A DNA stretch of 18,248 nt from a virus: positions 1 through 18,248 of IMG/VR virus record IMGVR_UViG_3300045988_132161. The stretch is one strand, 5' to 3'. The position numbers were made by a program, and so were the translations under genes. Below, piece by piece: positions 1,729 through 18,248 of the stretch (the first letter of the stretch is position 1; each line of letters begins with the position of its first letter). A model generated the notes under the pieces. That model did not search any database. It saw only the letters and a list, made by a program, of their open reading frames with translations, and was not told where the DNA came from.

Positions 1729-1734
1729 TATAAA
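1706..1734 (+). promoter_or_regulatory. Promoter P2: TTGAAA, 17-nt spacer, TGaTATAAA (extended -10)
   Basis: TTGAAA at 1706..1711, a 17-nt spacer, TG at 1726..1727 and TATAAA at 1729..1734. It overlaps the stop of the p6-like gene and lies upstream of the SSB gene. Confidence 0.55.
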
Positions 1735-1791
1735 AAGATTTAGGCACAAAGCCTAGAAAACAACAATAACAACGATAATCAAGGGAAGGAT

Positions 1792-2235: not shown

Positions 2236-2265
2236 CCTACCGACCGGTAGATAGATCCCATTCAT

Positions 2266-2291
2266 AGAGAGCACCCCTTCGGGTGCTCTCT
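2266..2291 (+). terminator. Hairpin between SSB and TP genes (partial terminator or attenuator candidate)
   Basis: AGAGAGCACCC, loop cttc, GGGTGCTCTCT: an 11-bp perfect stem with a 4-nt loop. It is followed by CCATCTTG, which is a weak U tract. Confidence 0.4.
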
Positions 2292-2315
2292 CCATCTTGA
2301 AGGGGAGTATGCCCT

Positions 2316-3278: not shown

Positions 3279-3305
3279 CGTGTCTCATCGAAGGGAAGTT
3301 ATATC

Positions 3306-4757
3306 ATGACGATGATCAAAAGTAGGGTCGGATTATGGTGTGCCGACGGTGTGATACGGTTTACGGACGGCACGGGATTGCATGATGTCGGCTCCCCCGC
3401 CGCCATGATGGCGGCTGTCATGACCGGAGGCAGGCTTACCGTCTACGTGACCGACCCTGATGTGCTCGATCCTTTCATTGCGCATGTCGTGCATGCGCTC
3501 CCCCATAATGAGCATCGCGCGAACCTGAGCTGGGATGGCATCGTTTCCAAGAAGGGCAGGTTTTTCAGCTTCTGTGTGACCGTCGACCGGGATGATTCGA
3601 TCCGCTTCTTCGACGTTTCGAACCTGCTGCGGGAAAACTGCCGTATCACCATGACGGACAGGCAGTTGTTGGCTGTTCTTGCCGAATATGAGAAGCGTGG
3701 CCTGTGCAGGATCACCGCGGGCGCGGCCAGCATGGAAGCGTTCGTCAGGGGGGATTGGGAATGGTATGATGGCAAATTCCCCCAGCTCGGTTCGGAGGAT
3801 AAAATGTCGTTGCATGGGGCTTATATCGGAGGATTCATGCTGGCCAAGGAAGGACGGTATGGCAAGGCCATTGACGTTGACTGCAATTCCATGTACCCGT
3901 CCATTTTGAAGGATGAATGGCTTCCGTGGGGGCTTCCGGAACCGTATGACGGCGAATATGAGCGGGATGACGACATGCCGTTGCATTGCGACGAAATGAC
4001 GTTCCGTGCGGAATTGAAACCGGACGGGTGTCCTTTCCTGTTGGACAACCGTAGCATGTACGGTTTGAATCGTCTCACTTCGACACGAGGCTATGTCACG
4101 CGTGTCCTGACCGACATCGACCAGAAGCTGCTCGAAGAGAATTATGACGTGACCGTGTACGAACGTGTGCGTGGGTGGAAGTTCCGTAGGAACAAAGGGT
4201 TTTTCCGCTCTTTCGTCGAAGAATGGGGCGCGTTGAAGCAGCGTGGGACGGGGGAGGGAAGGCAGATGGCCAAGCTCATCATGAACGCTCTCGTGGGCAA
4301 GATGGCAAGCCTGCCGAAAGGCGCCGTCATGCTCCCCTCTTCGAAGGATGGCGTCACCGTCGAATGGGATGTCGCCCATCGTGACGGGTCGAATCTGAAG
4401 ACCGATTATCTGCCGGTCCCCATATGGGTGAACGCTTATGCGCGTAGGAAGCTTATGACGGTCTGCCGTGCGAATGCGGATCGGCTCCTGTATGCCAATA
4501 CGGACGGCTGCATACTGTCCGGCTGGGATCCGGTGGCATCATGCGAGATTCATCCGACCGAATTGGGCAAATGGAAGATCGCCGCCAAGTATGATAGGCT
4601 CACCATTCTGGGAGTGAATCGATATCAGGGGTGGCGTTGCGATGGTGGAGTGGATGTCTGCATGGCGGGAAGCGTGTTCGACGAGCCCATCCCCTATGAG
4701 CGGTTCCGGCATGGCGTACAGGTGCGCGACGCCTGCGGTACGATGGTCATGCTATGA
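3306..4757 (+). CDS. Protein-primed family-B DNA polymerase (phi29 gp2-like, short and divergent)
   Basis: 483 aa. Motif A is IDVDCNSMYPS (phi29 FDVNSLYP), motif B is KLIMNALVGKMAS (phi29 KLMLNSLYGKFAS) and motif C is LLYANTDGCIL (phi29 IYCDTDSIHL). RITAGAASMEAF matches phi29 RMTAGSDSLKGF. A TPR2-like insertion, SLPKGAVMLPSSKDGV...PIWVNAYAR, lies between motifs B and C. Confidence 0.9.
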   Translation: MTMIKSRVGLWCADGVIRFTDGTGLHDVGSPAAMMAAVMTGGRLTVYVTDPDVLDPFIAHVVHALPHNEHRANLSWDGIVSKKGRFFSFCVTVDRDDSIRFFDVSNLLRENCRITMTDRQLLAVLAEYEKRGLCRITAGAASMEAFVRGDWEWYDGKFPQLGSEDKMSLHGAYIGGFMLAKEGRYGKAIDVDCNSMYPSILKDEWLPWGLPEPYDGEYERDDDMPLHCDEMTFRAELKPDGCPFLLDNRSMYGLNRLTSTRGYVTRVLTDIDQKLLEENYDVTVYERVRGWKFRRNKGFFRSFVEEWGALKQRGTGEGRQMAKLIMNALVGKMASLPKGAVMLPSSKDGVTVEWDVAHRDGSNLKTDYLPVPIWVNAYARRKLMTVCRANADRLLYANTDGCILSGWDPVASCEIHPTELGKWKIAAKYDRLTILGVNRYQGWRCDGGVDVCMAGSVFDEPIPYERFRHGVQVRDACGTMVML

Positions 4758-4900
4758 TGGGAATCGTTCTTCGAGCATTGATTTTCGGCTGGGAGAGACA
4801 TGGTTCGGACTGCCACGGCTGAGAATGCCGCCGATCATGGTTTGCCGTCGTGGTGACGGCGCCCTACGATTTTCGCCTCATGCTCTTATAGGACGTTTCG

Positions 4901-4930
4901 GGCCCTCCGTGATTGGAGGGCCTTTTGCTT
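4901..4930 (+). terminator. Rho-independent terminator closing the replication operon
   Basis: GGCCCTCC, loop gtgatt, GGAGGGCC: an 8-bp GC-rich stem at 4901..4922, followed by TTTTGCTT. Confidence 0.75.
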
Positions 4931-4939
4931 GCCGTGGCA

Positions 4940-4948
4940 TGATATGAT
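4940..4948 (+). promoter_or_regulatory. Promoter P3 (late): extended -10 TGaTATGAT
   Basis: TG at 4940..4941 and TATGAT at 4943..4948, just downstream of the terminator and 36 nt upstream of the scaffold ATG. There is no convincing -35. Confidence 0.4.
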
Positions 4949-4983
4949 TGGAGAGGAAACATTGCCTATCGTAAGGAGATTGC

Positions 4984-5268
4984 ATGGCAGAACCGACCAC
5001 TGGCGACGAGGATGCTCCCGTCCAGCCGCCGACCGTGGAGGAGAGGGAGACCGAAACCGTCGACGATGAGGTCAAGCCGAACGGGGATTCGGGGCCGGAG
5101 TCGAAGGACGGCGGGCCGGACGTGTCCGCACGACTCGATGCCATCGAGAAGGAGTTGGCCGCATTGAAGGCCATGATGGACACGCTCGGATACACGGACC
5201 CCACTCCGGCCGATGACGGCGATGATGGCGTCGAAGCGCAGCATTCCATCGAAGACCTGTTCGATTAA
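4984..5268 (+). CDS. Scaffolding protein (phi29 gp7-like by size, charge and position)
   Basis: 94 aa and very acidic (D/E-rich), with a helical segment ARLDAIEKELAALKAMMDTL. SD AAGGAG lies upstream and the gene sits immediately before the major capsid gene. Confidence 0.6.
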   Translation: MAEPTTGDEDAPVQPPTVEERETETVDDEVKPNGDSGPESKDGGPDVSARLDAIEKELAALKAMMDTLGYTDPTPADDGDDGVEAQHSIEDLFD

Positions 5269-5290
5269 CCATAGTTAGGAGATATTCACC

Positions 5291-7033
5291 ATGTCTAATA
5301 TTCGACCGTTGGCCGGCAAGGGTGACGTTGAGATTTTCAATGCCGTGCGTGCCGAAACCAGCCCCCAGTTTCAGATGCGCATTCCGTCGGCCACGCAAGG
5401 CAACCTTCGCAGGGCCGTGGATACCATGCGCGGCTTCCCGTACCTGCGCGACGAGTTCACGGGAGTGCTGATCCAGCGTCTCATCGGACTGTACGTCCAG
5501 CATGCGGACTGGGATGATCCGCTCAAGCTTGTCGGCTCCCCACGGACCTTGAAGCGCTATGGCAGCACGTATGAGCAGGCCGCCGTCGGCTTGGTCAAGG
5601 CACGCACCCGCAATTTCAATCAGGAATATCTGGGCGATGACGTCTATGGCCGTTATTCGCTGCCGACCGCAAGCGTCTTCCATCCTCTCACGTTCGACCA
5701 TTACTATCCCGTCACGATCCCGGAGGATGCGCTGCTGACCGCATTCGACGGCGAGTCCGGCATGTCGGAGTACATCGCCGAGATTATGAACGCCCCCATC
5801 CTGTCGGATAGGAACGACATGTATCTCATGAAGACGCAGTGCTTCGCGGAATACGCCCGCAAGGGCGGCTTCTATCGCGTGCACACGCCGGACGTGGGCA
5901 AGGCCGATTCGACCGAAGCCGATGCGAAGGGCCTGTTGCGTCTCATCCAGCAGAAGGCCAACGAGCTGAAGTCCCTTCCGATGAGTGCGATGGGCAGGTA
6001 TAATGCCATGAGCTGGGTGACGCCGTGGCGTGATTCCGAAGCGATCCTCTTCGCCACCCCGCAGGTGATCGCCGCATTGAACGTGGAGGCGTTGGCCGCG
6101 GCGTTCAACATCGATCGGGCCAACGTGCCGTATCGTATCATCCCGATTCCGGAGGACATGTTCGGCATCGGCGGCGCGGCGGGCAAGGTGCAGGCCGTGC
6201 TCACCACCGAAGACTTCTTCTTCTGTTGGGATGAAATGCTCGAAACCACGAATTCGCCGGTCAATCCGATTGACGGCACCCGCAACATCTTCTTCAAGCA
6301 TCGTGGTTCCGTCACTCCGAACCCGTTCGCGAACGCGATCCTGTTCTGGACGGGCGAAGGCTCTTCCGAATCCGTCGTCCTGCCGGACACGCTCACCGTT
6401 TCCAAGCCGAAGTTCGCGTTGCGTGTCAGGAAGTACGGCCAGCCTGCCGTCACCCCGCAGGACGTGTCGCGTGGCGACCTGGTGCAGGTCGAGTCCGTCA
6501 TTTCCAGCGCCAACAAGGATACGGCATCCTTCCAGCCGGTCGGCGTCGAATACGCGTTGGAGGGCGCGACCTCCCAGTTCACTTCGATCGACAATGACGG
6601 CATCCTCAGGTGCGGTTTGGACGAAACCGCCGAAAGCCTCAAGGTCACCGCGCAGGCGACCTATGTCGATCCGGCGACTCCGGAGATTGATCAGGCCGTT
6701 TCCGCCGCGCTCGACGTGCCCGTCGTCGGCACTTGGGTCGGCGGCATCAAGGTCGGCGCACTGTCCGGACTGACCGTTTCCGGCCCCGATGATGTGAAGG
6801 TTTCCGGATCCGTCAAGCTCACCGCCTTGGCTCTCATGGCGGACGGGTCGAAGCGGGATGTGAGCAATCTTGCCGACTGGAATGTCGACGCGAACGCTAC
6901 GGTCGACAAGACGGGCAAGCTGACGGGCGCTGCCGTCGGCGACGCGAAGGTGACCGTCAGGTTCGCCGGAGCGGTCGGCGAAAAGACCGTGAAGGTTTCC
7001 GCCGGCGAAAAGACCGTGAAGGTTTCCGCCTGA
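5291..7033 (+). CDS. Major capsid protein (phi29 gp8-like) with Ig-like (Big_2-type) C-terminal domains
   Basis: 580 aa, SD TAGGAG upstream. [22 protein letters not shown] matches phi29 [38 protein letters not shown] matches phi29 LDVDVLAKAFNMNRTD. The C-terminus [53 protein letters not shown] is a typical Big_2 pattern. Confidence 0.9.
   Translation: [580 protein letters not shown]
6977..7030 (+). repeat. Perfect 27-bp tandem duplication at the 3' end of the capsid gene
   Basis: GGCGAAAAGACCGTGAAGGTTTCCGCC occurs at 6977..7003 and again at 7004..7030. It is in frame and gives [18 protein letters not shown] followed by the stop. Confidence 0.95.
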
Positions 7034-7054
7034 GAAGGTGTCGGAGAGTAGAAT

Positions 7055-7092
7055 GGGCATGGGGGTGACCCTCATGCCCGTTCTTGTTGTTT
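7055..7092 (+). terminator. Rho-independent terminator or attenuator after the capsid gene
   Basis: GGGCATGGGGG, loop tga, CCCTCATGCCC: an 11-bp stem with one G-U pair, followed by GTTCTTGTTGTTT. Confidence 0.65.
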
Positions 7093-7102
7093 AGGAGGTT
7101 TT

Positions 7103-9334
7103 ATGACGGCCAATGATCTGCCCATCAACTTCAGTTACGCGAAATGGACGCCGAACACCCGCTTCAAATTGTGCAATGTCCCTTGGGATATGGGGTATCG
7201 GGATATCGTCACATGGGATAGGCAGCGGCAGGAAGCGTATTTCGACGGGTTGGACGGCATCGAATTCACCGGCTGCACCATGGCGAAATACGGGCTGCCG
7301 GTACGGTTGCCGGTGCCGTTCGCGCAGGCGTCGCGATACAATTATCTCATCGCATCGAACGAGTATGGTTTCGATACTCCTCGCAGCTGGTATTATTTCG
7401 TGCAATCCTGCGATTACGTGAACGCCGGCACCACGCAGTTGAACATCCAATTGGACGTGTGGCAGTCCTTTCAGCATGACGTGACGTTCGGCACCGCCTA
7501 TGTGGAAAGGGGGCATGTCGGCGTCGCCAACGAACGTCAGATGGACGATTACGGTCGTGGAACGCTCGACCTGCCGGAAGGATTGGATGCCGGCAAGACG
7601 CTGATCAACGCGACCACGGCGTACATGCCGCTCGCCACGGTGGAAGACGGGCGTGTGGCCTGCGGTGTGATCATCGTATCCACCACGGACCTTACCGTCG
7701 ATCCGGGGGATCAGACCAATCCGAAGACCACCACCGCAAGCGGGTCCATATTCGAAAACCAGTATAATGGCACGCAATTGATCTATCTTACGTCCGTGGA
7801 CGACTTGCAGACCGTGTTCGCCCTGGGTGCGAACTATCCGTGGGTCACCCAAGGCATTTGCGGCATTTACGCGGTACCGCGGCTGCCTGAAGGCCTGTTG
7901 CGCAATCAGGGGGAGTATGGGAAACTGTTCGGCAAGGAAGTGAAGGGATTGAAAGGCAGGATCGTCCACTTGTATCAGAATACCGTCCACGGCCGGGACC
8001 GGTATTCGGATGTCATGGTCGTGAAGGATTTTCGCGACAACTTCCATATCCCGCAGCGTTACCGGCATTTGAAGAAGCTGCTCACCGCCCCCTACTCCGT
8101 CGTCCAATGCTCCTGCCTGAACGGCACCAGCATCGAATATTCGCCGGAACAGATCCCATCCAAGGATCTGACGATCCGTGAAGCGTGGCAGTATGCGCCG
8201 CCGCAGCCGCGTCTGAATTTCTGGATACCGAATTACGCCGCCCAATATGCGGACCAGTGGTCGCCCCTGCCGGATGACATGGGATTGCCGTTCGATAAGG
8301 GCGACATGTTGGATGCGGCTTTCGGCATCACGAATTTCCCGACGTTCATGGCCGTCAACAATGGCAGCGCCCTCGCATTGGCCAATTCCGCCTATACGCG
8401 ACAGTATGCGCAGAAGTCGGCCGACTGGTCGTATCAGAAAACCATGATGGGCGTCAACAACGCTTACGCGCAATCGCAGATCGGCACGCAGTATGCGGGC
8501 GAAGCGAACCGGCTCGGCGCGTCCAACCGCAATTCCATGAATGCGATCAGCAATCAGGCCGCGCAGATGGCAACGGATCTGACGTTGAAGAACCTCGGGT
8601 TTTCGAACCAGATGGCGCAGCTCAATACGATCGGATCCGGCGCTCTCGGAGCCGTCGGCTCCCTTGCGACGGGCAATGTCGGCGGTGCGGCCGGAGCCGT
8701 GGCGGGAGCTGCGATCGGCGCTTGGACGAACCAGCAGACCTACAATAACGACGTAAGTTCGGCCAACCAGCAGTTGGCGAACACCCAAGCCACCAACAAC
8801 GCTTCGACGTCGCAGGCCAATGCCTATTCGCTCGCGCAGACCAACCTGTCCAACCAGCAGACCATGCAGTTCGCCGACATGAACCGCCGGCTGGCGCAGG
8901 CCACCGCGCAAGGCGACTATGCGAACACGATCGCCGGCATCAACGCGCAAGTGCAGCAGACGCAGACCACGCCGCCGACCACGTCCGGCGCGTTGGGCGG
9001 CGACGCGTTCAACCTGGCCAACGGCATTGTCGGCGTATGCGTGAAATTCCGCCGCCTGTCCGACGCGGCCCTTAATACGATCGGCGAATTCTGGCTGAGA
9101 TACGGATACTACGTCCAACGGTTCATGCGCATGCCGGCCGGTCTCATGGCCATGAGCAATTTCACGTATTGGAAGGTTCACGAACTGTATTTGAGCAGTT
9201 CGACATGTCCTGAAGAGTTCCGGCTGACCATCAAAGGCATTTTCGAAAGCGGCGTGACGGTGTGGACGGATCCTGACAGGATCGGCGTCACCGACTATGC
9301 GGACAATGAGCCGCTGGCGGGCATCTCATACTGA
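7103..9334 (+). CDS. Tail knob / distal tail tube protein (phi29 gp9-like)
   Basis: 743 aa, SD AGGAGG upstream. SRYNYLIASNEYGFDTPRSWYYFVQSCDYVNAGTTQLNIQLDVWQSFQHDVTFGTAYVERGHV matches phi29 [60 protein letters not shown]. The C-terminus FWLRYGYYVQR...IKGIFESGVTVWTD matches phi29 FFHKYGYKINR...IRTIFDNGITLWHTD. Confidence 0.9.
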   Translation: MTANDLPINFSYAKWTPNTRFKLCNVPWDMGYRDIVTWDRQRQEAYFDGLDGIEFTGCTMAKYGLPVRLPVPFAQASRYNYLIASNEYGFDTPRSWYYFVQSCDYVNAGTTQLNIQLDVWQSFQHDVTFGTAYVERGHVGVANERQMDDYGRGTLDLPEGLDAGKTLINATTAYMPLATVEDGRVACGVIIVSTTDLTVDPGDQTNPKTTTASGSIFENQYNGTQLIYLTSVDDLQTVFALGANYPWVTQGICGIYAVPRLPEGLLRNQGEYGKLFGKEVKGLKGRIVHLYQNTVHGRDRYSDVMVVKDFRDNFHIPQRYRHLKKLLTAPYSVVQCSCLNGTSIEYSPEQIPSKDLTIREAWQYAPPQPRLNFWIPNYAAQYADQWSPLPDDMGLPFDKGDMLDAAFGITNFPTFMAVNNGSALALANSAYTRQYAQKSADWSYQKTMMGVNNAYAQSQIGTQYAGEANRLGASNRNSMNAISNQAAQMATDLTLKNLGFSNQMAQLNTIGSGALGAVGSLATGNVGGAAGAVAGAAIGAWTNQQTYNNDVSSANQQLANTQATNNASTSQANAYSLAQTNLSNQQTMQFADMNRRLAQATAQGDYANTIAGINAQVQQTQTTPPTTSGALGGDAFNLANGIVGVCVKFRRLSDAALNTIGEFWLRYGYYVQRFMRMPAGLMAMSNFTYWKVHELYLSSSTCPEEFRLTIKGIFESGVTVWTDPDRIGVTDYADNEPLAGISY

Positions 9335-9336
9335 CC

Positions 9337-9389
9337 TGTATAATGGGAGGAGCAATGAACACTCCTCCCATGATGTTAGGACGGTAATC
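9337..9389 (+). promoter_or_regulatory. Leader of the portal gene: consensus -10 TATAAT, SD-sequestering hairpin and a 10-codon uORF
   Basis: TATAAT at 9339..9344. GGGAGGAG (9345..9352) pairs with CTCCTCCC (9362..9369), leaving the uORF ATG (9355) in the loop. The uORF at 9355..9387 encodes MNTPPMMLGR, and its TAA ends 2 nt before the portal GTG. Confidence 0.45.
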
Positions 9390-10331
9390 GTGAGCAGACG
9401 CAACAATGCGCGTAAGGCCGCACATTGGGACAACCAGTCGGTGTTGGGATCCATGTGGGGCAATCTGAACCTGCCTGAAATGCGGCAGAGCCTGCGCATC
9501 AACCAGTATATGAAGCTTATCGAAATGCTGGCGGTGTCACGGTTCAAATGGGTCAACCTGCCCCCATACGTCGATGAACGGTATCTTGAATTGACGTTGT
9601 TCGAAAACGGCTTGGCCCTGTTCTTCCCGGACAAGCGTAAGGGGGTGCACCGTTTCATGGTCACGTCCGGCAATATCGGCGGCGTGAACAATTATGACAA
9701 CCCCACCAGCTTCCAGCCCGTCGCGACCGGATATTCGCATCCTCAGATCGGAAGCAAGGAGTGCGTGCCCATCTGGGACAACCAATTGCGATGCACCATG
9801 ATCGACGTCATGTGGAATTACGCCACACGGTTGGCCATCGCGGATCGTGCCCTCGACGTGAATCTCGACAACATCAGCGTGCCGTTGATCATCGCCACGT
9901 CCGAAACCAACAAGCTCACCGCACAGAATCTGATGAAGGCGCGTGAGGATGGCGACCCATACGTGTACGCCTATGATTCGGCGGATATCACCGGCATGTT
10001 CCAGACATTCCCCAACATGACCCCCTTTTTGGCGGATAAGGTCATCACCGTCAAGACGCAGATATGGAACGAGCTGGTCAACTATCTGGGGATCGACAAT
10101 TCGACGACGGAGAAAAAGGAGCGTCTGCTCGAATCGGAGGTGACCGCCGGAAACAGTCGTACGAACGTCTTCCGCCTGAGCTATCTGAAGGCCCGCCAGC
10201 AGGCGTGCGATACGATCAACCGCCTGTGGCCGCAAATGGCGGATTCGGGCAAGCCGATCGGCGTCGAATGGAACGACGTCACGACCGGCGGCCTGTTGGA
10301 CGTGGATGGAAGCAAGGAGGATGGACGATGA
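9390..10331 (+). CDS. Portal / upper collar connector protein (phi29 gp10-like)
   Basis: [23 protein letters not shown] matches phi29 [50 protein letters not shown]...[16 protein letters not shown] matches phi29 [27 protein letters not shown]...FLKSREEACEKINELY. I chose the in-frame GTG at 9390 as the start. This gives 313 aa (phi29 has 309) and a basic N-terminus SRRNNARK like phi29 MARKRSN. The upstream ATG at 9297 would overlap the knob gene by 38 nt. Confidence 0.85.
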   Translation: [313 protein letters not shown]

Positions 10332-11140
10332 CGCAGGATCTGAGCATGTACGCCGTCAAGGACAATATGGCGGATTATACGCTGACCTTGGGCAATCTGA
10401 TCGCACGCGGTTTCGACACGGATGACAAGCTGCATCTGTCCGCGCGATATTATCCGATCTTCGACGAATCATACCGGGCGAGGCTCAACGAAAAAATAGT
10501 CGCCCACTACGCCTTGCGTGAAATAGGCAGCGAAACGCCCCAGATGTTCGTGTTCTATCTGGGACGGACCATGCGCGAGCAGATGGACTATTTCAACCAG
10601 TTGTATGTCAGCGCCCGACATGAGTTCGACCCTTTCATCACTTCCGACATCAGGCAGGACATGGATTCGACCAACGTCAACGAGTCGAGCGGCCGTTCGA
10701 GCGGCACCCAGTCGAACGAATCCACCGCCCACAGCACGTCGGACACCAAGGCGGACAATTCCAGCATGACGTTCAATTCCGAGTTTCCGCAGACCCGCAT
10801 CGACGATTTTCGCAAGTTCGCCACCAGCGCGTCGCAGACCGATTCGACCGGCGACACGCATACCAGCACGCAGCAGGACAGCACGGCCACCGCAACCAGT
10901 CGAAGCAACACCGATTTTGCGCATTCGTCCGACAAGGGCAAGAGCGTCTCGCATACGCTCGGCACCAGTGGCTCGCAATCCCAGCTTCTGCAGGATTGGC
11001 GTAACACCATGCTCAACATCGACCTCATGGTCGTCAACTCGCTCGAAGACCTGTTTCTGGGCGTGTGGGGCAGCGGGGACGTCATGACCGCCGGTCGGAC
11101 GCCTTGCAACACTTCCCTCGCCTATGCTCTAGGCCATTAG
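10328..11140 (+). CDS. Lower collar protein (phi29 gp11-like)
   Basis: 270 aa. ATG at 10328 overlaps the portal stop (ATGA), with SD AAGGAGG 7 nt upstream. The N-terminal YYPIFDESYRARLNEKIVAHYALREIGSETPQMF is the pattern I associate with lower collar proteins. A Ser/Thr-rich central region follows, and the gene sits after the portal. Confidence 0.65.
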   Translation: MTQDLSMYAVKDNMADYTLTLGNLIARGFDTDDKLHLSARYYPIFDESYRARLNEKIVAHYALREIGSETPQMFVFYLGRTMREQMDYFNQLYVSARHEFDPFITSDIRQDMDSTNVNESSGRSSGTQSNESTAHSTSDTKADNSSMTFNSEFPQTRIDDFRKFATSASQTDSTGDTHTSTQQDSTATATSRSNTDFAHSSDKGKSVSHTLGTSGSQSQLLQDWRNTMLNIDLMVVNSLEDLFLGVWGSGDVMTAGRTPCNTSLAYALGH

Positions 11141-11174
11141 GCTATACTTGGATGTAGGACAGATTGGAGGACTT

Positions 11175-11696
11175 ATGGATGGGATCAATCGACGCCCAAC
11201 CCCTGTGGACATCGATCCGCGGCAACGGTATTTCACTACCGTGCAGCCATTCAGCTATCGTGATACGCTGACGGCGCTCGGATACATTCAGGAGGTCGCC
11301 TCGCATGTCGACGAACTCAGGGAGCAGCTTGGCAATCTCGCCAAGGATGAGCATGCGGACATCGAAGCGATCAATGGGATTCTCGCGCGGATCGAAACGT
11401 GGCAGGATGCCGTCGACGGCACGTTGGATGATCTGACGGCGAAACTGGACCAATATCAGGCGTCGGCGTTGACGTACGATCCGACCACGGGCCGGTACGG
11501 GGATTCGAAGACCACGGATCGTAACATGTATCGGGAGCTCGCCGTGTTCGGGGCACGCGTGGACCAGATGGCGTCCATGACGGCCGCCGAAGCCGCGAAC
11601 CATGATTGCATCACGTGGGCGGTCTTGGGCAATCGGGAGATTTTCGGCGATGACGAGCCGCGGGTGACGCCGCGGGAAAGGACGGGACGGCGGTGA
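11175..11696 (+). CDS. Hypothetical structural protein (173 aa, coiled-coil-like)
   Basis: In-frame ATG at 11175 follows GGAGGA (11166..11171). The track start at 11148 is a TTG. The gene lies between the collar and fibre genes. I recognise no family. Confidence 0.55.
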   Translation: MDGINRRPTPVDIDPRQRYFTTVQPFSYRDTLTALGYIQEVASHVDELREQLGNLAKDEHADIEAINGILARIETWQDAVDGTLDDLTAKLDQYQASALTYDPTTGRYGDSKTTDRNMYRELAVFGARVDQMASMTAAEAANHDCITWAVLGNREIFGDDEPRVTPRERTGRR

Positions 11697-11860
11697 ACGA
11701 CGACAGGTACGGCAGGACGCGGCATCTCGGCCTGCCATTGTATATGGACGATACTCCCATGGACTTGCGTGACGGATATAATGCGGCCATGAGAATGTTG
11801 GATCTGAAAATCAACCAATTGGAAACGCTCATCCGCGAAACCGAAGGAGTGAATCAATGA
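11693..11860 (+). CDS. Small protein (55 aa) paralogous to the N-terminus of the downstream fibre
   Basis: Hand-translated as VNDDRYGRTRHLGLPLYMDDTPMDLRDGYNAAMRMLDLKINQLETLIRETEGVNQ. The GTG start overlaps the upstream stop (GTGA) and its stop overlaps the fibre ATG (ATGA). It shares 16 of 37 positions with fibre residues 10..46 (NYGLNLYGDKDPADLRDGYNDSMHTIDETLKNHLDKI). Confidence 0.45.
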   Translation: MNDDRYGRTRHLGLPLYMDDTPMDLRDGYNAAMRMLDLKINQLETLIRETEGVNQ

Positions 11861-13662
11861 GCACCATATACGACAAGACCGACAATTACGGGTTGAACCT
11901 GTACGGTGACAAGGATCCCGCCGACCTGAGGGACGGCTATAACGATTCCATGCATACCATTGACGAGACGCTCAAAAACCATCTCGACAAGATCGACGGC
12001 GTGTCCCACACCGTTACGGACGCCGTCCAGAAGCAGGATGCGAAGATCGCGCTGAAGGCCGACAGGACCTACGTCGACGAACAGGACCGGACTCTTCAAG
12101 CAGCCATCGACGAACAGGATCGGAACCTTCAGACGGCCATCGACGGGAAGGCCGACAGGACCTACGTGGATGGCATGCTGGAAGGCAAGGCGGACTCCGC
12201 TCTCGTATATTCGAAGCATGATGTGGATTCGACTTTCGCGCTTAAGGCCGACACGTACACGAAGGAGGAAGTCGACAGGATGCAGGCCGGGCAGGATGAG
12301 GCCATCAACGCATTGAACCGGGGCGTCGACCAGGATCATAGCGTTCTCGTATCATACTTCCTGAGCCAATCCGAACGGTTGCATTACGCCGTATCCTCGG
12401 ATGGCGTCAACTTCGGACACCCGTACATCCGGGATAACGATGAGGGGGAGACGGTCCGCGACCCGTCATGCGTGTACGTGGACGGGCAAGTGTATTTCTG
12501 TTGGACACGTCCCACCGAAGCCGGCGGCGGCGCGTTCGGCAAGACGGACACGATAGGCATAGCCCAATTGAATCCTACGACCGGGGACATCGTACGCCGG
12601 ATCATCACGCCGGGCGTGCCTGGAACCTCGAACCTGTGGGCGCCCGACTTCTATCTGGAAGATTCGACGCTTCATATCATCTTCTCCGTCAAGACCGCCA
12701 CGCAGGACTTCCAGCCGTATGAGATTCATTCGACCGGCAACTATGCCGATCCATCATCATGGTCGACTCCGGTCGCCTTGGGCATCGCACCGTACGGCGG
12801 CATCGACCACCATATCATCAAGGATGACGCCGGAACGTATCATGACCTTTCGGCGGATGGGTCCGTCATTTCCGAACGGCACAGCAGGACCCTTATCGGA
12901 GGATGGAGCGGCAGGACGACCGTCGACAAGAACTGGCGTTATCTCGAAGCGCCCGCCTCCTATCGTCTCGCGAACGGCCGGTGGAGGGTGTTCTTCGACG
13001 GGGGCGGACTTCAGGGAGACTATAATCCCGGTTCGAACCTTCGGGAGAACGATGGCCTCATGTTCTACTGCGACTTCAGCAACGACCTTTCCACGCACGG
13101 GCCTCTCCACCCGGTCCCCACGGCCATGAGGCACTGCGGGCTCACGCTCATCCCCAACGATTACCTGGCCACGCAGGCACGTCTCGAAGTGGGGTCCGGG
13201 ATCGGCGGAGCCTACCTGTATAATTCCGTCGACATTCCGGTGGGGCTTGATTCCGCCGGGAAGAACGTTCGTGCGCTGTTCAACAGGTTCGAAGGGTTCG
13301 GAGGACTCCAGAACACCGGATTCGGAGGAAGCCATAACACCACCGAAGGGTTCATCGTAGGAAACTCGGGACTGTATGTGCTTGCCGCTTCCGTCTCATA
13401 CAAGTGCACGGCGCCTAAGACGTGGATCAACGCGCAGATCACCTGCTATCCGCAACGTGACTTCAAGAACGCGAGGAATCTGGGCATTGGCGCACAAGGA
13501 TTCTCGGCTCCCGACGACGACACGATCACTACCGTGGTATTGCCGGCGACGCTGGTGTACCTCCATGCCAACGATCAGATTCAGATCAAGATGTTCGGCA
13601 GGGACGGCGCTGTGACGCAGAGGGCCAACAACTCCTATTTCACCGCGTTCAAGGTGGCTTGA
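11857..13662 (+). CDS. Tail fibre / appendage (receptor-binding protein) with a GH43-like beta-propeller and a C1q/TNF-like C-terminal domain
   Basis: 601 aa, SD GAAGGAG upstream. N-terminal anchor motif YGLNLYGDKDPADLRDGYN. Shaft repeats KADRTYVDEQDRTLQAAIDEQDRNLQTAIDGKADRTYVD. Propeller-type motifs are VRDPSCVYVDGQVYF, LWAPDFYLEDSTLHIIFS, GIDHHIIKDDAGTYH and YLEAPASYRLANGRWRVFF. The C-terminal ~155 aa (GFIVGNSGLYVLAASVSY...LVYLHANDQIQIKMF...SYFTAFKV) has a jelly-roll, C1q-like pattern. Confidence 0.7.
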   Translation: MSTIYDKTDNYGLNLYGDKDPADLRDGYNDSMHTIDETLKNHLDKIDGVSHTVTDAVQKQDAKIALKADRTYVDEQDRTLQAAIDEQDRNLQTAIDGKADRTYVDGMLEGKADSALVYSKHDVDSTFALKADTYTKEEVDRMQAGQDEAINALNRGVDQDHSVLVSYFLSQSERLHYAVSSDGVNFGHPYIRDNDEGETVRDPSCVYVDGQVYFCWTRPTEAGGGAFGKTDTIGIAQLNPTTGDIVRRIITPGVPGTSNLWAPDFYLEDSTLHIIFSVKTATQDFQPYEIHSTGNYADPSSWSTPVALGIAPYGGIDHHIIKDDAGTYHDLSADGSVISERHSRTLIGGWSGRTTVDKNWRYLEAPASYRLANGRWRVFFDGGGLQGDYNPGSNLRENDGLMFYCDFSNDLSTHGPLHPVPTAMRHCGLTLIPNDYLATQARLEVGSGIGGAYLYNSVDIPVGLDSAGKNVRALFNRFEGFGGLQNTGFGGSHNTTEGFIVGNSGLYVLAASVSYKCTAPKTWINAQITCYPQRDFKNARNLGIGAQGFSAPDDDTITTVVLPATLVYLHANDQIQIKMFGRDGAVTQRANNSYFTAFKVA

Positions 13663-13725
13663 GTCCGACCGGCGGCCTATGGGCGTCCGGTCGGGCGAAT
13701 ACGGCATGTGACGGCAATGGTGGAC

Positions 13726-13750
13726 GGAACCCCTTAAGACGAGGGGTTCC
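13726..13750 (+). terminator. Hairpin in the fibre-lysin intergenic region (weak terminator candidate)
   Basis: GGAACCCCT, loop ttaagacg, AGGGGTTCC: a 9-bp stem followed by ATCCTATT, a poor U tract. A second hairpin, CCGACCGG (13665..13672) with CCGGTCGG (13687..13694), lies upstream. Confidence 0.3.
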
Positions 13751-13772
13751 ATCCTATTCGGAGAGTGGTACG

Positions 13773-15029
13773 TTGAGCAATCAAAGCATGTTTGCGATGT
13801 ATGCGATCGGCAAGGTCGAATCAGGCAATTCGTGGACTTCGGTGAACTACAATGATCCGATCACCTTGGGGATGATGCAATGGTATGGGACCCGCGCCTA
13901 CGGCCTGCTCGACAAGGGCCGTAGGGAGGATCCTGTCGGATGGACGGGATTCGAACGGGATGCGCCCACCTTGGCCGGACAGGTCGAAGCCAATGCCATC
14001 GACTGGACCGGCCGATACCTGACCCGTGCGGAAGGCAACGCGTTCATCACATGGGCCAGCCGCAGCGAATTCCACAAGGTCGAACAGGACCTGTGGGAAT
14101 CCGACTATGCGGCGTACTCCGCCACGTGCGACGATTATGGCTTCCCGGCGGGCAATGTCAGGGAGCGTATCTTCTTCATGAGCATGTACCATCAGTCGCC
14201 GCAGCGTGCGCTGGTGGTATTGGGCAATGTCAGCGCCACCGGATCGCTTGAACTGTTCCACACCACCGCGCTCAACGATGCCATCCTCGGCCGCTATCCA
14301 AGCCGATACGATACCGTCTACCGGCTGTTGCGCGATTGGGATGGGACGGGCGCCCCGCCTGACTTCGGACAGTCCGGCAGCATCGACGTCACGCCGGGCG
14401 GCAATGGTCCCGCCATCGAATCCAAGCCGAAGAACACGCGTTGGATTCACGTGCAGGGGGATGGCATGTATTTGCATGACGGCGGCAAGGTGAGCATATT
14501 CCATCACACCACCGCCCAGAATTGGGTCGAAAGCGTGCAACAAGGCAACGAAATTTCAGGCGGGCAGACCGGGGGAGGCAGCAGTAGCGGCAGCGCCACG
14601 TCGGACCAGAGGAAAGTGTACGACCTGTACCTGTCATGGCAGGGACGGTTCGCCTACTCTCAGGCCGGGGGACGGTTGGATCCGCTCCATACCGGCTATG
14701 GTGACTGTTCGAGTACGATCTGGCGGGCGTATCAGGATGCGCTCGGCATCGACGTGGGCACGTGGACCGGAGCGATGAAAGGCAAAGGCAGACGCGTCTG
14801 TTCCAGTGATGGTACGGGCGTGGAGGAAGCGTTGAAGAACGCGCAGACCGGCGACCTGCTATTGCTGTGTTGGGGGTATGATTACGTCAACTATGATCAT
14901 GTCGAAATGGCCGCCGGAGACGGGTCTCATTGTCTTGGCCATGGCGGGCCGGGCAACGGGCCGACGTTGAAGGATATGGGGGCTACCATGCGGGCCGCCG
15001 CGACATGGGAGATTCGACGGTATGTCTGA
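13773..15029 (+). CDS. Tail-associated peptidoglycan hydrolase (gp13 analogue): N-terminal lytic transglycosylase-like domain plus C-terminal NlpC/P60 endopeptidase
   Basis: TTG at 13773 lies 8 nt after GGAGAG; ATG at 13788 is an alternative start. The N-terminus has GKVESGNSW...ITLGMMQW (SLT-type ES and GLMQ motifs). A Gly/Ser linker follows. The C-terminus has GYGDCSSTIWRAY (catalytic Cys), GDLLLL and YDHVEM (His), typical of NlpC/P60. Confidence 0.75.
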   Translation: MSNQSMFAMYAIGKVESGNSWTSVNYNDPITLGMMQWYGTRAYGLLDKGRREDPVGWTGFERDAPTLAGQVEANAIDWTGRYLTRAEGNAFITWASRSEFHKVEQDLWESDYAAYSATCDDYGFPAGNVRERIFFMSMYHQSPQRALVVLGNVSATGSLELFHTTALNDAILGRYPSRYDTVYRLLRDWDGTGAPPDFGQSGSIDVTPGGNGPAIESKPKNTRWIHVQGDGMYLHDGGKVSIFHHTTAQNWVESVQQGNEISGGQTGGGSSSGSATSDQRKVYDLYLSWQGRFAYSQAGGRLDPLHTGYGDCSSTIWRAYQDALGIDVGTWTGAMKGKGRRVCSSDGTGVEEALKNAQTGDLLLLCWGYDYVNYDHVEMAAGDGSHCLGHGGPGNGPTLKDMGATMRAAATWEIRRYV

Positions 15030-15040
15030 TCGTAGGAGTG

Positions 15041-15049
15041 TGTTATACT
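15041..15049 (+). promoter_or_regulatory. Promoter P4: extended -10 TGtTATACT
   Basis: TG at 15041..15042 and TATACT at 15044..15049, 12 nt after the lysin stop. The format matches the ITR, P2 and P3 elements. There is no clear -35. Confidence 0.4.
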
Positions 15050-15053
15050 ATAA

Positions 15054-15140
15054 GTGTCGGCATACAAGCATCTGCGAACAACTTCCCTTGGCCGACACGG
15101 GGTGTGACGGTGGTCATGACGTCACACCCCTTTCCCTTAT
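15054..15140 (+). ncRNA. Candidate ~80-nt structured RNA or leader (two hairpins ending in a terminator) upstream of the packaging ATPase
   Basis: Hairpin A pairs GTGTCGGC (15054..15061) with GCCGACAC (15091..15098), extended by CAAG (15065..15068) with CTTG (15087..15090). Hairpin B pairs GGGGTGTGACG (15099..15109) with CGTCACACCCC (15120..15130) and is followed by TTTCCCTTAT. The TSS predicted from P4 is about 15055..15058. Confidence 0.3.
15099..15140 (+). terminator. Rho-independent terminator between the lysin and ATPase genes
   Basis: An 11-bp perfect GC-rich stem with a 10-nt loop, followed by TTTCCCTTAT. Confidence 0.6.
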
Positions 15141-15157
15141 ATGGAGGTGACGTCGAA

Positions 15158-16225
15158 ATGGCATTGCGGACATTGGCTGAAAACGACTATTACGACCTCC
15201 ACAACCTCCTCACCCGTAACGCGCCATGGAACTTCATCATCGGAGCGCGAGGCCTCGGCAAAACCTTCGCCGCGAAACGATACGGCATCAAGGAGTACCT
15301 CAAACACGGGCACGAATTCATCTACCTGCGCCGCACCGACGTGGAACAGAAACGCAAGGAAACCTTCTTCAAAGACATTCAAAGCTTCTTCCCCGACTAC
15401 ACGTTCCGCATCAACGGCGACAAAGGCCAATTGCACAACGACTCGTGGGAAGACAAGGACTGGCGCACATGCTGCCATTTCATCGCCCTCTCCCAAGCCG
15501 GCGGCCTCAAATCAGTCGCCTACCCCAAAGTCCATCTCATCATCTTCGACGAAATATTCCCCGACAACCTACGATTCCTCAGCAATGAAGTCAACTCGTT
15601 CTCCGAATTCTTCAACACCGTGGACAGGTGGCAGGATAGGACGAAAGTATTGTTCCTATCCAACGCCGTACAGCAAGCCAACCCCTACTTCGCGAAATAC
15701 CATCTGGACATCGGCACGCAGCAAGCCAACCATCAGCAATACAGGCTCTACTGCAGCGGCTTCATCTGCCTCGAACTGGCGGATTACGGCGGATTCTCAG
15801 CCAAAGTAGCCAAATCCAGATTCGGCAGGTTCCTGGAACGATACGATGGCGACTATGCGGATTACGCCATTCGAAACAAGTTCCGGGACGAATCCGACAA
15901 GCTCATAGCGGCAATCCCCCCGGACGGTGAACTGTCATACGTTCTGGACACCGCCGACTACGGTCGCTTCGGCATTTGGATGACGATATCCGAAAAGGAC
16001 GGGCACGTGTCACGATACGTGTCACGACGGATACCCAAAGACAACACCCGCCCCACCTACACGCTCAACCCCAACCACGTCGACGAAAAAACATGGTACG
16101 TCAAAAAATCCGACGACGTGGTACGACGACTCACCACCGGATACCGGCTCGGCAAAATCAGATTCGAAAACACCCAAGTCAAAGCGGACTTCGCCCTCAT
16201 CATCGGCAACCTGCTAGGAGCATAG
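15158..16225 (+). CDS. DNA packaging (encapsidation) ATPase, phi29 gp16-like
   Basis: 355 aa. ATG at 15158 lies 10 nt after GGAGG (15143..15147). WNFIIGARGLGKTFAAKRYGIKEYLKHGHEFIYLRR matches phi29 LNFVIGARGIGKSYAMKVYPINRFIKYGEQFIYVRR (Walker A). HLIIFDEIF matches STIVFDEFI (Walker B). FLSNAVQQANPYF matches CLSNAVSVVNPYF. RFGRFL and GKIRFEN match RFGRLI and GYLRFDN. Confidence 0.95.
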   Translation: MALRTLAENDYYDLHNLLTRNAPWNFIIGARGLGKTFAAKRYGIKEYLKHGHEFIYLRRTDVEQKRKETFFKDIQSFFPDYTFRINGDKGQLHNDSWEDKDWRTCCHFIALSQAGGLKSVAYPKVHLIIFDEIFPDNLRFLSNEVNSFSEFFNTVDRWQDRTKVLFLSNAVQQANPYFAKYHLDIGTQQANHQQYRLYCSGFICLELADYGGFSAKVAKSRFGRFLERYDGDYADYAIRNKFRDESDKLIAAIPPDGELSYVLDTADYGRFGIWMTISEKDGHVSRYVSRRIPKDNTRPTYTLNPNHVDEKTWYVKKSDDVVRRLTTGYRLGKIRFENTQVKADFALIIGNLLGA

Positions 16226-16240
16226 AAAGGAAACCCGACA

Positions 16241-16606
16241 ATGACGCAAACGGACATATGGAGCGCCATCGCAATACTGTTCTTCATCACCACGGACTAC
16301 ATCACCGGAGTGATCAAAGCCAGCATGCAAGGCAACCTCAGCTCCAAAAAAATGCGGGAAGGCTTAGGCCACAAGCTCGCCTACCTCGCACTATCAGTCA
16401 CCGCATGGTTCATAGACATGCTGAACACGCACCTCCCCCTCGGCTTCCCCCTCGACATATCCACCTGCGTCATCAGCGGCATCTGCCTCATCGAACTCAC
16501 CTCCATCCTCGAAAACCTCACAGCCATCAACCCGGAACTCAACGACGCCCCATTCATGAACATCTTCGCACAACACGACACCCAGCCAAAACACAAGGAA
16601 AGCTGA
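16241..16606 (+). CDS. Holin (Phage_holin_4_1 / LL-H, TcdE-type)
   Basis: 121 aa. It has the pattern DYITGVIKA...LSSKKMREGLGHKLAYLALSV.....ID...LIELTSILENL and predicted transmembrane segments. It lies immediately upstream of the endolysin. Confidence 0.85.
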   Translation: MTQTDIWSAIAILFFITTDYITGVIKASMQGNLSSKKMREGLGHKLAYLALSVTAWFIDMLNTHLPLGFPLDISTCVISGICLIELTSILENLTAINPELNDAPFMNIFAQHDTQPKHKES

Positions 16607-16609
16607 CCA

Positions 16610-17479
16610 ATGGACGACATCACATGGATAGGCTCACCAAACCACTACAACGGGCGAAACGGCTACACCATCACCCACATCACACTCCACATCATGGTAG
16701 GCCACCTCACCGGAACCGACAACGTCTTCAACCAGCCCACGACACAGGCAAGCGCACACTACGGCATCGGAGCGGACGGCACCATACACCAATACGTCAA
16801 CGAAACGGACGGCAGCTACAGCGACGCCAACTACGCATCCAACAATTCAACCATCAGCATCGAACACGAAGGAGGAAAAGCCGGCATACCATGCACCCAA
16901 GCATGCATGGACGCCAGCGCCCGACTCTGCGCCGACATAGCACGACGACACGGTTGGACACACCTATGGCATGACGGGCTCAACGGCAACATATGGCTCC
17001 ATCGAGAAATACCCGGAACAGACCACTACGGATGCCCCGACAACACCATCAACAGCCTCAACGTACCCTACATCATCAACAAAGCAAACCAACTACTGGC
17101 AACAGGAGACACTATGACAGCAGAAGACGTATGGAACTTCAACCAAAACGGCGTGAAAATGCGCGACCGCATACAAGGCACCGACACGGCCGCAAACAGC
17201 GCCAAAACCGAACTCTTCCGACTATCCACATGGGACAACGACACCCACGCATCCCCACTAGGAAACCTCGTCATCGAACAGCCAATCCAACAAGGAGCCA
17301 AACTCGGCGACCGAATAGCCGGCATCGACGACAAAACCAGCCAACTCATCACCCAAATAGCCGCACTCACCACAGCAGTCAAAACACTCGCCGAACGCAT
17401 AGGAGCCAACCCCGACACCACCACACCAACCACACACAACCAGACCAAGCCAAACCCGACAACCACCACAACACAGTGA
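16610..17479 (+). CDS. Endolysin: N-acetylmuramoyl-L-alanine amidase (Amidase_2 / PGRP fold) with an uncharacterised C-terminal region
   Basis: 289 aa, SD AAGGAAAG upstream. It carries ITLHIMVGH, SAHYGIGADGTIHQYVNE, NNSTISIEHEG and LHREIPGTDHYGCPDN (T7-lysozyme-type Zn ligands His, His, Cys). The C-terminal ~130 aa is coiled-coil-like and ends in a Thr/Pro-rich tail. Confidence 0.85.
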   Translation: MDDITWIGSPNHYNGRNGYTITHITLHIMVGHLTGTDNVFNQPTTQASAHYGIGADGTIHQYVNETDGSYSDANYASNNSTISIEHEGGKAGIPCTQACMDASARLCADIARRHGWTHLWHDGLNGNIWLHREIPGTDHYGCPDNTINSLNVPYIINKANQLLATGDTMTAEDVWNFNQNGVKMRDRIQGTDTAANSAKTELFRLSTWDNDTHASPLGNLVIEQPIQQGAKLGDRIAGIDDKTSQLITQIAALTTAVKTLAERIGANPDTTTPTTHNQTKPNPTTTTTQ

Positions 17480-17504
17480 CAATCCACCGGCAGCAAGCCA
17501 CAAC

Positions 17505-17536
17505 AAAGCCCCTAGGCCAACAAACCTAGGGGCTTT
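17505..17536. terminator. Bidirectional terminator hairpin at the inner edge of the right end
   Basis: AAAGCCCCTAGG, loop ccaacaaa, CCTAGGGGCTTT: a 12-bp stem. On the - strand it is followed by GTTGTGGCTTGC (with the stem's own TTT reading TTTGTTGTGG). On the + strand only the stem-terminal TTT is available. Confidence 0.6.
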
Positions 17537-17543
17537 CCCATAC

Positions 17544-17569
17544 CAACACCAACCACCAACACCAACCAC
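17544..17569. repeat. Tandem 13-bp direct repeat, two copies of CAACACCAACCAC
   Basis: The copies occupy 17544..17556 and 17557..17569 and are identical. Confidence 0.9.
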
Positions 17570-17591
17570 CACACAGCCTCACCAGCAAGCC

Positions 17592-17783
17592 TCACAAGCC
17601 ACACAAACCGCCTCTCCTAGCCCCAACACAACAGCCAAGCCTACCAACCAGCCAAGCCACAAAACACGTCCCACACGCCACCACACAGCCCCACACAGCA
17701 AGCCACACCACACAACCGGAACGACAGGCCGCCGCCACAAACCGGGACGGAAACACGGCAACCCTCACATCAACACCAGCCAT
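17592..17783 (-). CDS. Possible right-end leftward ORF (63 aa, hydrophobic) using the ITR-borne SD and ATG
   Basis: The mirror of the 466 ATG is at 17783..17781. The first 16 aa are identical to the left-end protein, followed by the unique AAACRSGCVVWLAVWGCVVACGTCFVAWLVGRLGCCVGARRGGLCGL. The ORF is bracketed by the ITR promoter and the 17505..17536 terminator. However, G+T-rich DNA yields such V/G/C/W-rich ORFs by chance. Confidence 0.25.
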   Translation of the reverse strand: MAGVDVRVAVFPSRFVAAACRSGCVVWLAVWGCVVACGTCFVAWLVGRLGCCVGARRGGLCGL

Positions 17784-18248
17784 AACAACACTCCCATCAA
17801 TGACTGAACACAACAACAACAACCAAACCCACAACAAGACCAGTACAAAGCAACAACACGTCCCCAACATCCCGCGAAACATCACTGCACATCAAAAACA
17901 GCTCGCAGCCAAGCAAGACGGCAAGAACACCAACAATGAAAACCATTATCAACACACCAACCTCACCACACAACCGGAACGACAAGCCCCACAGGAACCC
18001 CATGGCCAACAACGAAATAAAAAACAGTAATCATTTCACAACCTTTCTTTGAAGTTGATAACTACACTATACCACACACAAAAAAACAACACAACCGGAA
18101 AACGCAAAAAAAGACAGAAAAAATAAAAAAACCAGCAGCAAACTACAACAGAACCACCAACAACCACACACACAAAAAAACAAAAAAAAGAAAACATACC
18201 ATAAAAAAAAATACTATGGGAAAAATTTCCCACAGATCCCACCACTCA
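17735..18248. repeat. Right inverted terminal repeat (514 bp)
   Basis: Mirror copy of 1..514; see the left ITR entry. Confidence 0.95.
18066..18094 (-). promoter_or_regulatory. Mirror copy of ITR promoter a, firing leftward into the right end
   Basis: Reverse complement of 155..183. ACTATA at 18066..18071 is TATAGT on the - strand. Confidence 0.45.

Follow-up and report, generated by a model that had tools for sequence, protein, structure and literature searches.

Why should the top strand of a phage genome turn rich in A and C at one narrow point and stay so to its right end, when its left end is rich in G and T? The question is raised by the viral record IMGVR_UViG_3300045988_132161, which we analysed over its whole 18,248-nucleotide stretch (the window), and in particular by the right arm at positions 15,030 to 18,248, which carries the genes for a DNA encapsidation ATPase, a holin and an endolysin. 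The window is a complete linear 18,248-bp phi29-like Bifidobacterium phage genome. The original prediction, made from the sequence alone, was that the A+C-rich strand starts abruptly at a promoter/terminator element, mirrors the left end and follows from symmetric protein-primed replication from both ends. Our analysis suggests that the arms record a strand-asymmetric transition pressure linked to the genome ends. We hold this reading tentatively, giving it not quite an even chance, and it leaves the sharp boundary unexplained. The blocks concerned are as follows.

1-1671, + strand: left-arm mirror block, top strand G+T-rich, silent-site A+C 0.08-0.20 (step fit and composition), holding the left inverted terminal repeat (ITR) and gp03 to gp05
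1792-15029, + strand: centre, from SSB to lys1, four-fold-site A+C flat at 0.40-0.56 except for SSB at 0.68 (composition)
15181-18248, + strand: right-arm skew block, top strand A+C-rich, silent-site A+C about 0.80-0.92 (silent-site step fit, bins and composition)

The skew is located mainly at silent and non-coding sites. Counted over all sites, top-strand A+C is 0.271 in 1-1600, 0.507 in 1601-15100 and 0.686 in 15101-18248. At four-fold sites it is 0.07, 0.13 and 0.20 in the left-arm genes gp03, gp04 and gp05, and 0.75, 0.83 and 0.92 in the ATPase, holin and endolysin genes (the endolysin sites being A59 C71 G9 T2). The right arm does therefore mirror the left end, with opposite skew in the two arms. 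The flat stretch of the centre covers ten genes, gp07 to lys1, and 12.7 kb. Non-coding DNA has an A+C of 0.21 over all sites in 1-363 and of 0.81 in 17480-18248, and codon positions 1 and 2 of the ATPase gene carry no skew (0.49 and 0.56). The base counts made by hand for the original prediction are exact for 15181-15240 and 16621-16680; in 15001-15060 there are A14 rather than the A12 given, the C8, G20 and T18 being right.

Step fits were made on third codon positions and non-coding sites, with a 2-log-likelihood interval as support. On the right, a single step at 15181 (support 15172-15202) marks the boundary, which lies 14-44 nt into the ATPase open reading frame (ORF); its left mirror is a step at 1671 (support 1632-1674), within the 3' end of gp05. 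In bins of 60 silent sites, A+C runs 0.45, 0.35, 0.52, 0.48 up to 15193 and 0.80, 0.85, 0.72 onward. At both edges the step model outdoes a continuous flat-then-ramp model, the margin being about 32 log-likelihood units, and a ramp added behind the right step brings no gain in fit; the transition is abrupt, as had been claimed, and not a gradient. A 3-segment fit on all sites moves the right break to 16032. The right step adjoins a promoter-like and hairpin-bearing stretch, with these parts.

15030-15157, + strand: unskewed lys1/ATPase intergenic element, A+C 0.47, candidate promoter/terminator (sequence read and motif search)
15041-15049, + strand: extended -10-like TGTTATACT (sequence read)
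15054-15097, + strand: imperfect inverted repeat GTGTCGGC..GCCGACAC (sequence read)
15099-15129, + strand: perfect 11-bp hairpin GGGGTGTGACG..CGTCACACCCC, then TTTCCCTT (sequence read)

The step lies about 50-70 nt past the perfect hairpin and about 130 nt past the -10-like motif. On the left, a TGATATAAA -10-like element and a small hairpin follow the step after about 55-95 nt, ahead of the SSB gene. The proposed start at the promoter/terminator element holds to within about 50-150 nt. The TGTTATACT motif has two exact copies, at 1364-1372 (upstream of gp05) and at 15041-15049 (upstream of the ATPase gene), and a third copy with one mismatch at 13061. The total of 3 is not significant, being reached in 22 of 200 shuffles. 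The leader and coding sequence of SSB (1700-2235) have a composition opposite to that of the left arm, being A+C-rich, and so sharpen the left edge. Around the SSB start codon, all 68 relatives have an A+C of 0.64-0.66, with hardly any spread, and the A+C richness of SSB may reflect the C-ending codon preference of a highly expressed gene.

Two-fold sites, where transitions are the sole silent changes, give the chemistry of the shift. The C fraction of NNY codons is 0.22 in the left arm, 0.61 in the centre, 0.90 in the ATPase gene and 0.97 in the holin and endolysin genes, and the A fraction of NNR codons follows with 0.12, 0.28, 0.68 and 0.80. At four-fold sites the purine fraction is steady at 0.38-0.47, and their GC content (GC4) drops from 0.81 to 0.46-0.63, as C>T would give. 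The composition of the arms is that expected from C>T together with A>G on the strand that has its 5' end at the near terminus.

To what, then, is the polarity tied? ORF length is uninformative on the coding strand here because the skew strips stop codons from both strands. The coding strand was therefore judged from substitution patterns against four clade relatives (the codon-phase test), and the arm genes are these.

715-891, + strand: gp03 (codon-phase test)
851-1408, + strand: gp04 (codon-phase test)
1408-1728, + strand: gp05 (codon-phase test)
15158-16225, + strand: DNA encapsidation ATPase of the phi29 gp16 type (Pfam PF05894, E 1.3e-43; codon-phase test)
16241-16606, + strand: holin (Pfam PF05105, E 6.7e-17)
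16610-17479, + strand: Amidase_2 endolysin with a Thr/Pro-rich C-terminal tail (Pfam PF01510, E 8.9e-19)

In gp03, gp04 and gp05 the changes are rich in third positions and largely synonymous, with the inverse pattern in the overlapping minus-strand ORFs. The ATPase, holin and endolysin genes also test to the + strand (for the ATPase, 402 synonymous against 156 nonsynonymous changes). Pfam bears out the three identities that had been proposed from the sequence, and the Thr/Pro-rich endolysin tail is present. So are the spurious H/R/P/T-rich alternative-frame ORFs, at 15976-16974, 16993-17529 and 15141-15809; the one tested, 16993-17529, has no coding signal in relatives. All verified genes thus lie on the + strand and the arm skews are opposite, which ties polarity to the genome ends and not to the coding strand.

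Two causes were rejected. The coding strand or mRNA composition is ruled out because gp03-gp05 and the ATPase-endolysin genes are all on the + strand yet oppositely skewed; mRNA composition fails also because early genes are G+U-rich here and A+C-rich in Arthrobacter phages. Translational codon selection is ruled out, non-coding DNA being skewed equally. A search for minus-strand genes at the right end found no coding signal in 17068-18245, where alignments are poor. Records of the Bifidobacterium dentium phages BD811P1-3 carry minus-strand 'hypothetical protein' genes there (L001 17460-17777, L084 17343-17606, L083 54-317). The window ORFs that match them have no coding signal and have stops in relatives, and these annotated genes are probably artefacts of stop-codon-poor skewed sequence.

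The same polarity is found in other lineages. In Actinomyces phage Av-1, four-fold A+C is 0.16 in SSB, 0.29 in the terminal protein gene, 0.34-0.46 in the centre, 0.63 in the terminase gene and 0.79 in the endolysin gene. The left arm of Av-1 stops within the polymerase gene, at about 3.1 kb from its end, and the right arm within the terminase gene, at about 2.9 kb from its end, so that the arms follow distance from the ends rather than genes. The Arthrobacter phages Mendel and Anjali and the Microbacterium phage PineapplePizza carry minus-strand annotations for their leftmost genes, an orientation backed by a codon-phase test of Mendel against Anjali (Anjali gp01 is annotated as a methyltransferase). 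The left top strand of these phages is still G+T-rich, with an A+C of 0.07-0.33 against 0.7-0.88 at their right ends, and polarity is independent of gene orientation. End polarity is the one rule common to all skewed lineages, so far only phages of Actinobacteria. Av-1, Mendel, Anjali, PineapplePizza, BD811P1-3 and B. pseudocatenulatum phage BP1 share both the genome plan and the end-linked polarity of the window, which has the largest amplitude and the sharpest edges among the phi29-like actinobacterial podophages compared; BP1 and most metagenomic relatives, unlike the window, have weak ramps only. In Anjali (L093) the tail fibre gene, mid-genome at 11459-12766, has four-fold C205 against G36 and an A+C of 0.83, so a strong coding-strand preference for C exists in these phages apart from the ends and confounds simple skew scans.

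Closer to the window, a portal-protein scan of IMG/VR gave 80 loci with portals 93-96% identical. By four-fold A+C per gene, strong arms are confined to a clade made up of the window, BD811P1-3 and the relatives L049 and L078, with 0.71-0.79 in the ATPase gene, 0.87-0.93 in the endolysin gene and 0.11-0.39 in gp04. Relatives outside this clade have 0.50-0.73 in the ATPase gene (mostly 0.50-0.67), 0.51-0.84 in the holin gene and 0.27-0.55 in gp04. The mean of 66 non-clade genomes ramps toward both ends with no step at the ATPase start, and their best single steps are weak, lying 480-1270 nt into or beyond the ATPase gene. BD811P2 and BD811P3 have their step where the window has it, at +47 to +50 from the ATPase start; the position is not clearly common to L078 and L049. 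The original prediction had named unskewed relatives with these genes at the same position as counting against it, and such relatives were found in part: about ten have ATPase values of 0.50-0.53, against the clade's 0.71-0.79.

These observations are best accommodated by a pressure that acts from the ends. Close to either terminus, the strand 5'-ended at it, which would be the one linked to terminal protein, would gain C>T and A>G changes and hence become G+T-rich, leaving the top strand of the right arm A+C-rich. The source would most likely be the displaced strand, single-stranded during protein-primed strand-displacement replication. The assignment of the displaced strand comes from the phi29 model rather than from this phage; given it, the exposed strand is the G+T-rich one and the signal lies at silent sites. 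In this lineage, exposure would reach 1.7 kb in from the left terminus and 3.1 kb in from the right, and no further, ending abruptly. One possibility, and our best guess at a local cause, is that forks start often and then stall or are aborted at a defined barrier close to where the SSB and ATPase genes begin.

Strand asymmetry from strand displacement is already known. In vertebrate mitochondrial DNA it arises from strand-displacement replication, and the strand that is single-stranded, the heavy strand, is G+T-rich (PMC3269012, PMC3269015). As in the phage, the signal is strongest at four-fold and third positions and the shift matches C>T and A>G deamination. The mitochondrial skew is a gradient set by single-stranded time, whereas the phage has two terminal plateaus, steps of at most 30 nt and a flat centre; and silent-site divergence is not raised in the phage arms, unlike in mitochondrial DNA. 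Adenovirus-like linear genomes with a terminal protein and two-end replication reportedly show opposite skew in their two halves, with a sign change mid-genome and modest amplitude (the report being that of Grigoriev, 1999, 'Strand-specific compositional asymmetries in double-stranded DNA viruses'). The phage skew, by comparison, takes up only 9% of the genome at one end and 17% at the other, and it is close to saturation. We found no description of skew in phi29-like phages in the literature searched, and a 2024 review of these phages that lists BD811P1 makes no mention of it (PMC11476376). The terminal confinement, the near saturation and the steps of at most 30 nt are new here.

Substitutions polarised on the window branch are mostly skew-increasing, with 52 against 32 skew-reducing in the right arm and 50 against 25 in the left, a net increase that runs opposite to the known parsimony bias. 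The reverse, a net decrease in skew, appears on the BD811P2 and L078 branches, where this bias does apply. In a ten-genome cluster, skew-increasing per-site rates are 1.4-1.6 times those of the centre and skew-reducing rates about 0.5-0.6 times, the counts being small. The skewed clade is close to saturation for transitions, and the sole close pair, BD811P1 and BD811P3, has 26 and 30 changes in the arms.

Several results weigh against end-linked transition pressure as the explanation. The first is the shape. Constant-speed forks from two ends predict, by our own derivation, a difference in single-stranded time that is linear in position whatever the timing of initiation and zero mid-genome. 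Contrary to this genome-wide gradient, the window has plateaus and steps, and its skew is not graded by single-stranded time as deamination of a displaced strand would have it. The symmetric two-end replication first proposed thus accounts for the polarity, the strand 5'-ended at the near terminus being G+T-rich, but not for the shape, the 12.7-kb centre lying flat at about 0.5; the shape needs a local cause beyond it. The second is divergence. Four-fold divergence in left arm, centre and right arm is 0.20, 0.27 and 0.30 for BD811P2 against BD811P3 and 0.36, 0.33 and 0.31 for the window against BD811P2, and third-position divergence is 0.019, 0.026 and 0.012 for BD811P1 against BD811P3. At all three depths, silent divergence in the arms is not above that of the centre, and in the closest pair it is lower if anything. 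In the ten-genome cluster the shortage of skew-reducing changes contributes as much to the asymmetry as the extra skew-increasing ones, again on small counts. A large extra input of C>T alone is not supported by divergence that is not raised and rate ratios that are modest; redistribution (one strand exposed, the other protected) or a fixation bias could account for the asymmetry. The third is distribution. Most of the 66 close relatives have only a weak ramp with the same genes in the same order, and skew is far weaker in close relatives that share the polymerase as well. Finally, phi29, Cp-1 and PRD1, which are the models of this replication mode, have no arm skew. Phi29 and Cp-1 (Salasmaviridae) and PRD1 (Tectiviridae) resemble the window in protein-primed replication from both ends and in homologous ATPase, SSB and B-family polymerase families, but differ from it in an A+C of 0.44-0.62 per 500 nt, the four-fold values of Cp-1 being scattered around 0.5.

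A more specific form of the end-linked reading is that actinobacterial phi29-like phages have a discrete, end-anchored zone of 1.5-3 kb that is single-stranded or strand-specifically edited, its inner edge being a defined barrier. We regard this form as doubtful. In this phage the edges would lie within 30 nt, where the SSB and ATPase genes begin.

Selection on the DNA itself is the alternative that survives best, although we think it unlikely. Arms of two letters, which are not self-complementary, would be kept for the sake of single strands near the origins, with fewer hairpins, less template switching and fewer nuclease targets and restriction sites, or for panhandle pairing of the ITRs, as the proposed benefits. 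It would fit the sharp boundaries that the window and BD811P lineages keep despite 30-40% silent divergence, the arm silent divergence that is not raised and the shortage of skew-reducing changes in the ten-genome cluster. Palindromes and folding are also about halved in the arms. Palindromes of 4 bp occur at 37-39 per kb against 70 per kb in the centre and those of 6 bp at 10 against 15, and the folding energy of the arms reaches 30-55% of that in the centre. With -36 to -45 kcal/mol per 300 nt, the ATPase part of the right arm still folds, and an earlier description of the arms as nearly free of self-complementarity was overstated.

The depletion does not go beyond composition, however. Palindromes of 4 bp in the arms number 59 and 119 against 62±7 and 141±12 expected, those of 6 bp number 17 and 30 against 12.6 and 31, and arm folding equals that of dinucleotide shuffles (z about 0) except in the outer ITR and at 17300-17599. 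Avoidance of palindromes or structure beyond composition was accordingly rejected, and the selective benefit first suggested (weak folding, few restriction sites) has no independent support. Of the two strands, the displaced G+T-rich one folds slightly better than the A+C-rich one, the opposite of what structure avoidance would call for, and polarity is constant though either would serve; amplitude varies widely among close relatives of the same lifestyle, some of them without ATPase skew. The same polarity in every skewed lineage, together with the more foldable displaced strand, fits a mutational direction better than selection on structure. True avoidance of 6-mer palindromes is found in the centre and not in the arms: 1800-15150 has 201 against 260±15 in dinucleotide shuffles, consistent with restriction avoidance there.

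Transcription-associated mutagenesis, in which promoters pointing inward from the ITRs would expose the non-template strand to deamination and terminators would set the edges, is clearly less probable. It could draw on an extended -10-like TGGTATAGT in the ITR at about 173-181, mirrored at the right end, on the inward early promoters mapped at the right end of Cp-1 and predicted in Av-1, and on the nearness of both steps (about 50-150 nt) to promoter-like or hairpin elements. One further element bears on it.

17505-17536, no strand: perfect 12-bp GC-rich hairpin AAAGCCCCTAGG..CCTAGGGGCTTT in the interval between endolysin stop and ITR (folding)

This hairpin separates the right ITR from the endolysin gene, which counts against inward transcription, as does the lack of minus-strand coding signal in 17068-18245. 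The coding strand would have to be G+T-rich along transcription; it is so in the left arm, but it is A+C-rich in the right. The left genes of Mendel, Anjali and PineapplePizza point outward with polarity unchanged, the arm boundaries of Av-1 lie inside genes, and the shift in silent-site ratios, at least 10-fold, is far above any transcription-linked skew known to us. No other element of the right arm is as structured as this hairpin (z = -3.2 as RNA; as bottom-strand DNA, z = -4.8 for 17300-17599). It is a candidate two-way terminator where transcription converges, or may belong to a packaging RNA (pRNA) not yet recognised. A promoter and terminator scan gave matches no commoner than in shuffles, and missed both perfect hairpins because these lack a T tail.

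Enzymatic editing, a variant of the end-linked reading in which a host or phage single-stranded DNA deaminase acts on the terminal displaced strands, is improbable to a similar degree. It would explain the dependence on lineage and host: amplitude is lineage-specific and strongest in the clade of the B. dentium phages, neither Firmicute nor E. coli phages show the effect, and the skew comes close to saturation. On the other hand, the C that remains on the exposed strand has no neighbour preference of note such as a deaminase would leave (odds ratios TC 0.90-0.98 and CC 1.18-1.36, against 1.20 and 0.86-0.94 in the centre), A>G shifts accompany C>T, and no deaminase was identified. Least probable of all is a historical mosaic whose right edge is a recombination junction at which a clade-specific gp16-lys1 module came in unskewed: gp16 and lys1 do lack full-length homologues in most relatives, and the ATPase is 85-91% identical, but clade members 30-40% apart at silent sites all keep lys1 at 0.55-0.60 and the ATPase at 0.71-0.79, a contrast that is therefore maintained and not a relic, the remaining centre is just as unskewed, and the left edge has no such junction.

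The remaining features place the window among phi29-like podophages. By megablast it is 83% identical over 92-94% of its length to BD811P1-3 and 77% identical to BP1. Its gene order is like that of Av-1 and Streptococcus phage Cp-1. A linear 18,248-bp genome with a 514-bp ITR falls within the plan of these phages (about 16-20 kb with ITRs), and Pfam finds the B-family polymerase of protein-primed type (DNA_pol_B_2, E 7.7e-24), the phi29-type SSB (Phi29_Phage_SSB, E 4e-17) and the gp16-type ATPase (Podovirus_Gp16, E 1.3e-43). The repeats were found by comparing the sequence with its own reverse complement.

1-514, no strand: left ITR (sequence against its own reverse complement)
17735-18248, no strand: right ITR copy (sequence against its own reverse complement)

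The ITR is perfect, the first mismatch being at position 515. A degenerate continuation past 514 bp is ruled out, the arms having no mutual similarity there. Where detectable in related genomes, ITRs are 55-401 bp, so ITR length changes fast in the group. The outer ITR has a hairpin with a 9-bp stem at 14-35 and folds above shuffles (z -2.4 to -3.0). Helical periodicity of 10-12 bp, a possible sign of a p6-like protein array, was not seen. A search for pRNA or another known RNA gave no Rfam match at E up to 1, a search that a divergent pRNA could escape. Av-1 has a pRNA annotated just inside its right end; none was found by Rfam (E up to 1) in 17480-17734 of the window. The gene gp07 (2316-3278) occupies the position of the Av-1 terminal protein gene and has no Pfam match above threshold. 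The DNA polymerase ORF (3306-4757) has only 483 aa, short beside the 572-aa phi29 enzyme (phi29 CDS 1145-2863), and DNA_pol_B_2 aligns over residues 137-400 only; in the BD811P2 record the homologue has a later start and 445 aa. For gp16 and lys1 (11857-15029), most of the 66 close relatives have no full-length homologue, although identity in the flanking genes is 83-94%. The pair looks like a module for host range or lysis that was exchanged and is peculiar to the B. dentium phage clade; Pfam gives no match for lys1.

The skew has consequences of its own: long spurious ORFs arise on either strand, proteins under weak constraint are biased in their amino-acid content, and both phylogenies and codon-usage-based host prediction are distorted for an abundant human-associated phage group. 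If the arms are a mutational footprint, silent-site composition would reveal, at base resolution, the exposed strand and the extent of its exposure as protein-primed replication proceeds in vivo, and phages of gut and oral Actinobacteria would replicate unlike phi29. If the discrete-zone form is true, that composition would be a fossil footprint of fork pausing, a feature absent from the phi29 paradigm.

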